Assembly (NCBI RefSeq): GCF_016026235.1
Contig: NZ_CP065613.1
Strand: one strand, 5' to 3'
Length of the DNA stretch: 64,000 nt
Source: Escherichia coli
GTDB taxonomy: Bacteria; Pseudomonadota; Gammaproteobacteria; Enterobacterales; Enterobacteriaceae
Shown here: one piece after another, positions 4,401 to 4,830 of the stretch
How positions within the stretch are numbered: the first letter of the stretch is position 1
Layout: every line of letters starts with the position of its first letter
Position numbers and translations under genes: made by a program
Notes under the pieces: model-generated
Database searches by the model: none
What the model was told of the DNA's origin: nothing
Seen by the model: only the letters and a program-made list of their open reading frames with translations

Positions 4401-4583
4401 AAAGTTTGATGCTCAAAGAATTAAACTTCGTAATGAATTACGTGTTCACTCTTGAGACTTGGTATTCATTTTTCGTCTTGCGACGTTAAGAATCCGTATC
4501 TTCGAGTGCCCACACAGATTGTCTGATAAATTGTTAAAGAGCAGTTGCGACGCGGCTTTCAGCTCACTGTCGCGAGGTGGCGT

Positions 4584-4611
4584 ATATTACGCTTTCCTCT
4601 TTCAGAGTCAA
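4584..4611 (-). promoter_or_regulatory. rrn P2 promoter (-35 TTGACT, 16-nt spacer, -10 TAATAT on minus strand)
   Basis: Minus-strand hexamers read directly: + strand agtcaa at 4606-4611 and atatta at 4584-4589; position ~200 nt upstream of 16S 5' end as in E. coli rrn operons. Confidence 0.8.
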
Positions 4612-4691
4612 CCCTGAATTTCAGGATTTTTTCTCTTCGTTGTTACGACCATCTTGTGAAGTGTTTCACGTTGTCGTCTCAACGGAGGCGC

Positions 4692-4719
4692 ATTATAGGG
4701 ATCCCAATTTTTTGCACAA
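4692..4719 (-). promoter_or_regulatory. rrn P1 promoter (-35 TTGTGC, 16-nt spacer, -10 TATAAT followed by GC-rich discriminator)
   Basis: + strand cattataggg at 4691-4700 is revcomp of CCCTATAATG; -35 at 4714-4719. Confidence 0.8.
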
Positions 4720-4830
4720 GTACTTTTTTGATCTTTTTTTCTGTTTGTTGTTTTTTCACCCTTTTTGCTGCATTCGCACACAAAACGGTGCTTTTTTGCA
4801 TACTAAAAGACTTGCACAAGGCCAATAATG
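4720..4830 (-). promoter_or_regulatory. A/T-rich UP element / Fis-binding upstream activating region of rrn P1
   Basis: Long A/T tracts (tacttttttgatctttttttctgtttgttgtttttt) immediately upstream of the P1 -35; assignment by analogy with rrnB P1. Confidence 0.55.

Follow-up and report, generated by a model that had tools for sequence, protein, structure and literature searches.

The rrnD control region of Escherichia coli: tandem P1 and P2 promoters, an A-rich upstream activating region and the divergent gene yrdA

Few bacterial promoters are as well characterised as the tandem P1 and P2 promoters of the Escherichia coli rRNA operons, including their UP elements, their Fis sites and their sensing of nucleotides. 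Hirvonen et al. (2001) reportedly mapped the UP elements and Fis sites of all seven P1 promoters, including the Fis sites of rrnD. The reference used here is rrnB P1, which has an UP element from -60 to -40 and Fis sites at -71, -102 and -143. UP elements are present at all seven rrn P1 promoters, all of which are stimulated by them through the alpha-CTD and without any other factor, and the number of Fis sites per promoter ranges from three to five across the seven (PMC4696680). In the case of rrnD, binding of Fis to a K-12 fragment was shown by gel shift, with a site count that agreed with the published figure, and in a fis mutant the activity of this operon drops the least of the seven, to about 75% of the wild type (PMC4696680). 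[quoted passage not shown]

The window considered in this work is a stretch of 64,000 nucleotides of E. coli DNA. It can be assigned to the rrnD locus, positions 4576-4830, read on the minus strand, being the rrnD control region (probability about 0.95), and nothing contradicts this explanation. The P1/P2 pair of rrnD and its upstream activating region are already known, well studied and ordinary. Downstream of the promoters, the minus strand carries a complete 16S rRNA gene, tRNA-Ile, tRNA-Ala and the start of a 23S rRNA gene. A match to the Rfam family StyR-44 (122.9 bits, 2420-2528, minus strand) lies between tRNA-Ala and 23S and corresponds to the rrn spacer and 23S leader. The operon is named rrnD because the gene order, i.e. 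yhdZ, 5S, tRNA-Thr, 5S, 23S, tRNA-Ala, tRNA-Ile, 16S and then the divergent yrdA, yrdB, aroE and tsaC, is shared by K-12 MG1655 and by a strain with 100% identity to the window in this region. Many E. coli chromosomes carry positions 4400-4900 without a single difference (100% identity), and 5403 of the 5426 complete E. coli genomes have a match to at least 80% of this query. The sequence and the identity of the operon are direct observations, as are the positional homology with rrnB and the conservation across genera described below.

The rrnD region of MG1655 (NC_000913.3, about 3428763-3429235) displays the same elements in the same register, between the same flanking genes, with 99% identity over 491 aligned bases. 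Five differences separate the two alleles: A in the window versus T in K-12 at 4773 (-90), G versus A at 4723 (-40, in the proximal UP subsite), A versus G at 4654, T versus G at 4645, and a run of A residues (4632-4627) that is one A shorter in the window. The window allele is a common one, which many strains carry with 100% identity.

Conservation was assessed in an alignment of the window with 19 other Enterobacterales genomes from several genera (20 sequences), in which islands are defined as at least 85% conserved. Furthermore, a search for relatives of yrdA, with one genome per species, returned 80 loci. The features discussed in this work are the following.

2859-4399, minus strand: 16S rRNA gene rrsD, the first gene read from P1 and P2 (Rfam SSU_rRNA_bacteria, full length, 1577.6 bits; RefSeq annotation of identical DNA)
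4504-4545, minus strand: conserved leader block with boxA TGCTCTTTAACAA (4543-4531), invariant in all seven K-12 rrn leaders
4547-4573, minus strand: boxB-type hairpin GCGAC...GTCGC just after the P2 start, a stem-loop predicted by RNA folding
4584-4589, minus strand: P2 -10 TAATAT (sequence and consensus scan), inside a 41-bp block (4613-4573) at least 85% conserved in the 20 sequences
4606-4611, minus strand: P2 -35 TTGACT, 16-bp spacer (sequence, consensus scan, K-12 alignment and conservation)
4627-4632, minus strand: A6 tract upstream of the P2 -35 (4631-4627 conserved)
4683, minus strand: presumed P1 start G, from the register with rrnB P1 in the alignment
4684-4691, minus strand: G+C-rich P1 discriminator GCGCCTCC, inside a block (4704-4684) at least 85% conserved in the 20 sequences
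4692-4697, minus strand: P1 -10 TATAAT (sequence, alignment with K-12 rrn promoters and conservation)
4714-4719, minus strand: P1 -35 TTGTGC (sequence; conserved block in the 20-sequence alignment)
4721-4743, minus strand: UP element CAGAAAAAAAGATCAAAAAAGTA, from -60 to -38 with 4683 as the start (sequence against the subsite consensus; conserved A-tracts)
4747-4761, minus strand: predicted Fis-type site GGGTGAAAAAACAAC centred at -71, counterpart of rrnB Fis site I (score 8.5, the best)
4767-4781, minus strand: second candidate Fis site GTGTGCGAATGCAGC centred at -91 (score 7.3; G4781 and C4767 invariant, interior variable)
4787-4834, minus strand: weak distal Fis-like matches at -111 (4801-4787, score 6.5) and -144 (4834-4820, score 7.0)
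4812-4840, plus strand: candidate yrdA promoter, TTGCAC (4812-4817), 17 bp, CAAAGT (4835-4840), proposed from conserved blocks
4863-4866, plus strand: yrdA ribosome-binding site GAGG, in the conserved block 4867-4863
4872-5426, plus strand: yrdA coding sequence, gamma carbonic anhydrase family, 184 amino acids (translation, annotation and homology)

A first-pass annotation of the region had read, on the minus strand, a P1 promoter with the hexamers TTGTGC and TATAAT and a GC-rich discriminator, and a P2 promoter with TTGACT and TAATAT, and had proposed an alignment with the rrnD and rrnB promoter regions as a check. Both promoters are found as described, P1 with its hexamers at 4719-4714 and 4697-4692 followed by GCGCCTCC at 4691-4684, P2 with its hexamers at 4611-4606 and 4589-4584, and the spacer is 16 bp in each. 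Aligned with K-12 rrnD and its six K-12 paralogues, P1 and P2 fall exactly in register with the promoters of all seven K-12 operons: neither CCCTATAATGCGCC nor the P2 core varies, the leader from boxA (TGCTCTTTAACAA) to the 16S gene is identical in all seven, and the -10 and discriminator are near-identical. The P1 hexamers and their 16-bp spacer lie upstream of the 16S gene (5' end at 4399) and are followed by a G+C-rich discriminator, as in a canonical rrn P1. P2 is a second sigma-70 promoter, homologous to the other rrn P2 promoters and located within the ~100-120 bp below P1 that characterise them: its -10 sits 108 bp downstream of that of P1, and the two promoters are about 106 bp apart. 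In rrnH, the P2 core region (about 4613-4552) is the same as in the window, whereas rrnE P2 agrees as far as 4567 and diverges beyond it (GTGCGCTAAAG--CGCG versus GTGAGCTGAAAGCCGCG). In both rrnE and rrnH, the leader from boxA onward is identical to that of the window and the region upstream of P1 is operon-specific.

The P1 core (4701-4684), including the discriminator GCGCCTCC, is invariant in the 20 Enterobacterales genomes. Among 42 P1 promoters linked to yrdA (41 species-representative loci plus the window), the -35 is TTGTGC in most loci and TTGCGC, TTGTGG or TTGCCA in some. In the register of rrnB P1, transcription would start at G4683, whereas the other six K-12 P1 promoters have an A at this register, and this agrees with the published response of rrnD P1 to GTP (PMC9239199). 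The presumed start is an A in 35 of the 42 promoters, mostly within CTCCATCGA, as in E. coli rrnE and rrnH. It is a G in the remaining seven (CTCCGTTGA), which are those of the window, E. coli, E. albertii, Kosakonia cowanii, Enterobacter sp. Bisph1, Phytobacter massiliensis and Siccibacter colletis. The G start, the basis of GTP sensing by rrnD P1, is a minority state among the orthologues.

The same promoter carries two GATC (Dam) sites about 30 bp apart, one at 4703-4700 (-20, in the P1 spacer, GGGATCCC) and one at 4733-4730 (-50, between the UP subsites). Both are conserved almost throughout the orthologous Enterobacterales loci, and most genera except Escherichia and Citrobacter have two additional GATC, at -92 and -102, within AGATCGnACAGGATCT. 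The density of GATC reaches 3.7 per 187 bp in the orthologous loci versus 4.4 per kb in the window, with spacings between neighbours of about 10, 30 and 42 bp. None of the other six E. coli rrn P1 promoters has a GATC at -20 or -50. No specific report on GATC or SeqA at rrnD came out of a literature search. Hemimethylation after passage of the replication fork, acting through SeqA or through altered contacts of RNA polymerase or its alpha-CTD, might transiently modulate rrnD alone, which would couple rrnD P1 to replication, but we consider this quite improbable; alternatively, the GATC sites could be conserved only as part of sequences selected for other reasons.

Downstream of P2, a boxB hairpin is followed by TGCTCTTTAACAA, which we take to be boxA from the established knowledge of rrn antitermination, and this succession is that of an rrn antitermination leader. 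The leader block 4545-4504 is at least 85% conserved among the aligned Enterobacterales genomes that reach that far. The 81-nt fold that includes the hairpin is, taken as a whole, not better than shuffled sequences (z = -0.38). Upstream of the P2 -35, the A6 tract at 4627-4632 might play an UP-like role for P2. An inverted repeat, CCTGAATTTCAGG (4613-4625), lies directly upstream of the P2 -35 and is followed on the plus strand by ATTTTTTCTC, the two together resembling a terminator for transcripts antisense to the leader. This repeat is common to rrnE and rrnH and absent from rrnA, rrnB, rrnC and rrnG. The number of terminator-like hairpins on the plus strand (two, at 4579-4593 and 4613-4625) is at chance level (0.9 +/- 1.1 expected).

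The first-pass annotation also described the 100 bp or so upstream of P1 as unusually A/T-rich and consistent with an UP element and Fis sites, and this description holds. The 4720-4819 segment has 34% GC, compared with a mean of 51% for the window, which places it in the lowest 1.2% of the 100-bp stretches, and it has 46% A on the rrn sense strand, which places it in the top 0.2% for single-base richness. Since there are 16 other comparable low-GC clusters within the 64 kb, a low GC content by itself is usual for intergenic DNA. The distinctive feature of the region upstream of P1 is therefore its strand-biased A-tracts (at about -27, -43, -54, -70, -81 and -111 relative to P1), more so than its low GC. 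Elsewhere in the window, A or T reaches 46% or more over 100 bp only at 52031-52131 and 58714-58886.

The segment from -60 to -38 is A/T-rich and matches the UP subsite consensus (proximal AAAAAARNR and distal NNAWWWWWTTTTN, taken from PMC4132738). Indeed, the proximal subsite (4729-4721, AAAAAAGTA) agrees with its consensus at every position specified, and the distal one (4742-4730) agrees with NNAWWWWWTTTTN at 7 of the 10. At position -40 (4723), the G of the window and the A of K-12 both fit the R of the consensus. The conserved blocks of the element are 4737-4730 and 4728-4724.

Putative Fis sites were sought, as the first-pass annotation had suggested, with a feature-based score that rewards a G at -7, a C at +7, an A/T-rich 5-bp centre and Y-R steps at +/-3-4, and penalises a G at -8 (PMC4784862). 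As a control, the scan recovers the three classical sites of rrnB (-71, -102 and -143) as the top scores upstream of rrnB P1. In the window, the Fis-like background amounts to 7.9 sites per kb at a threshold of 7.0, and scores of at least 8 occur about once per kb. The best predicted site upstream of rrnD P1 lies at the canonical -71, where GGGTGAAAAAACAAC has the 15-bp core, the G/C pair at -/+7, the A/T-rich centre and the Y-R steps of a Fis activation site. A site at this place is found in all seven K-12 P1 promoters (at -72 in rrnE, where the match is weak, with a score of 6.8). The second-best, at -91, carries one of the differences from K-12, at 4773; this site and the number of Fis sites at rrnD are predictions of the present analysis. 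The matches at -111 and -144 were rejected as confident Fis sites because they are at background density and poorly conserved.

The islands conserved across genera outline these elements. From upstream to downstream on the rrn strand, they are 4758-4753 (the centre of the -71 site), 4737-4730 and 4728-4724 (the A-tracts of the UP element), 4719-4714 (the P1 -35), 4704-4684 (spacer, -10 and discriminator), 4631-4627 (the A-tract before P2), 4613-4573 (P2) and 4545-4504 (boxA onward). Upstream of the UP element, and the Shine-Dalgarno sequence of yrdA aside, the only invariant columns are G4781, C4767, G4761, C4747 and A4755-4753. These columns coincide with the +/-7 pairs of both predicted Fis sites and, for the -71 site, with its centre, which lends independent support to the sites at -71 and -91, although the coincidence was recognised post hoc. 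Downstream of the P1 -35, some of the conservation could be due to gene conversion among rrn operons and not to selection at this locus.

On the other side, the start of yrdA had been placed about 150 bp beyond P1, and 152 bp indeed separate its ATG (4872) from the upstream edge of the P1 -35. In the great majority of Enterobacteriaceae loci, an rrn P1 core occurs at ~175-180 bp from the ATG of yrdA; it occurs at 146-267 bp in many, but not all, other Enterobacterales and in Salinivibrio, while at one Aeromonas locus the -10 is related and the discriminator differs. Most draft genomes of Enterobacterales, Vibrionaceae and Aeromonas have a contig end 200-600 bp away from yrdA, as one would expect beside an rRNA operon, whereas in Pseudomonas the gene is not at a contig end. 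Therefore, the divergent yrdA-rrn arrangement appears to be conserved well beyond E. coli, i.e. in much of Enterobacterales and in Salinivibrio, where the rrn P1 was found, and probably in Aeromonas and other Vibrionaceae, as suggested by the contig ends.

The blocks CTTGC and CAAAGTC on the yrdA sense strand, as well as their spacing, are conserved across the aligned genomes and point to the candidate yrdA promoter at 4812-4840. Its hexamers are weak (6 matches out of 12), and its -10 retains the A and the T that are critical at positions 2 and 6, respectively. A resemblance to the sigma-32 consensus (CTTGCA, 14 bp, CCCCCAAAGT, 4811-4844, plus strand) was also considered for yrdA because of a reported ChIP-chip hit at this gene, and was set aside, its CCCC being confined to Escherichia; the ChIP-chip signal itself is disputed and has been attributed to non-unique probes adjacent to rRNA (PMC2996942). 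Dornenburg et al. (2010) described, inside yrdA, the promoter of an antisense RNA with the -10 CATAAT, whose mutation left the expression of yrdA::lacZ unchanged (PMC2912661). A CATAAT found inside yrdA at 5025-5020 (minus strand) matches this published -10, and the transcript would run towards the upstream region of rrnD.

Several other explanations of these data have to be weighed against an rrnD control region activated by both an UP element and Fis. The hexamers could be chance matches, with the real promoters elsewhere. Indeed, a consensus promoter scan called one site (P2) versus 1.0 +/- 1.0 in shuffled sequences and did not call P1, which it misses because TTGTGC matches TTGACA at only three of six positions. 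As hexamer matches are at chance level, the significance of the two promoters comes from homology and conservation and not from hexamer scores, and it is the exact register with the mapped P1 and P2 of K-12, together with the invariance of 4701-4684 and the conservation (at least 85%) of 4704-4684 and 4613-4573 in the 20 Enterobacterales genomes, that effectively refutes a chance origin, to which we attach practically no probability. A less radical proposal is that the A-rich region of rrnD is almost wholly a protein-independent UP element with curved DNA and that Fis plays a minor part. The perfect fit of the proximal UP subsite to the consensus, the A-tracts at about -27, -43, -54, -70 and -81 and the smallest effect of Fis among the seven operons, rrnD keeping about 75% of its activity without it (PMC4696680), would all suit such a region. 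However, the G and C at +/-7 of the -71 and -91 sites are invariant in 20 of 20 sequences while their neighbours drift, a pattern that Fis contacts, and not A-tract curvature, would be expected to leave, and gel shifts show Fis bound to the rrnD fragment (PMC4696680). An almost Fis-independent activation of rrnD is therefore rather unlikely, even if it deserves more credit than a chance origin of the hexamers.

How the intergenic region is used by its two divergent promoters is a more balanced question. The first-pass annotation had concluded that the yrdA promoter must share the region upstream of P1. This promoter must indeed be placed within the intergenic space of 472 bp, since the other side is filled by the rrn operon, but sharing may be too strong a word: the candidate at 4812-4840 is upstream of the block formed by the UP element and the two Fis sites (4721-4781), so that the region looks partitioned more than shared. 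Positions 4721-4781 (-38 to about -100), with the UP element and two Fis sites, would serve P1, and positions 4812-4871 (beyond about -125), with promoter, 5' UTR and ribosome-binding site, would serve yrdA. Such a partition fits the distribution of the conserved islands in two groups, separated by the poorly conserved 4782-4811, and the fact that the candidate overlaps only the weak and unconserved distal Fis-like match at -144, the -111 and -144 matches being at background; the effect of the fis deletion, smallest at rrnD (PMC4696680), is also in its favour. Conversely, the putative yrdA promoter has only 6 of 12 hexamer matches, the published range of three to five Fis sites (PMC4696680) implies that distal sites may exist that the scan scores poorly, and the two promoters could be coupled through DNA bending by Fis or through divergent supercoiling even if their sites do not overlap. 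Taken together, we would give a partition with little functional overlap an even chance.

The resulting picture of an rrnD control region with UP and Fis inputs can be described as follows, the start sites, protein binding and regulation being transposed from published work on E. coli rrn promoters. P1 would be a sigma-70 promoter with a weak -35, a consensus -10, a short 16-bp spacer and a G+C-rich discriminator, an architecture known to make open complexes unstable and sensitive to ppGpp/DksA and to the concentration of the initiating nucleotide, here GTP. Two upstream inputs would lift this weak promoter: the UP element, presumably bound by alpha-CTDs via the minor grooves of its A-tracts, and Fis, which would contact the alpha-CTD from -71, probably with a second dimer at -91. 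P2, with the stronger core (TTGACT/TAATAT), would provide basal rRNA synthesis. Transcripts from both promoters would cross the boxB-boxA antitermination leader, which is expected to load the antitermination complex, before entering the 16S rRNA gene, and yrdA would be read divergently from its own, probably weak, candidate promoter at about 4812-4847.

The value of this analysis mainly lies in calibration, as an unaided reading of the hexamers, the discriminator, the A/T-rich activator and the divergent gene proved accurate to the base. The cross-genus footprint is a modest addition, which independently marks the +/-7 contacts of Fis and the A-tracts of the UP element. Globally, the reference rRNA promoter, rrnB P1, shares with the P1 of the window a 16-bp spacer, a TATAAT, a G+C-rich 8-nt discriminator, an A/T-rich UP element in the same place and a Fis-type site centred at -71. 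However, the two differ by their -35 (TTGTCA in rrnB versus TTGTGC in the window) and their start (A versus G), by the composition of the UP element, which is a mix of A and T in rrnB and consists of A-tracts (AAAAAAAGATCAAAAAAG) in the window, and by the position of the second Fis-type site (-102 in rrnB versus -91 in the window). Furthermore, the distance between P1 and P2 is about 120 bp in rrnB versus about 106 bp here, and the P1 spacer of the window, unlike that of rrnB, contains GGGATCCC.
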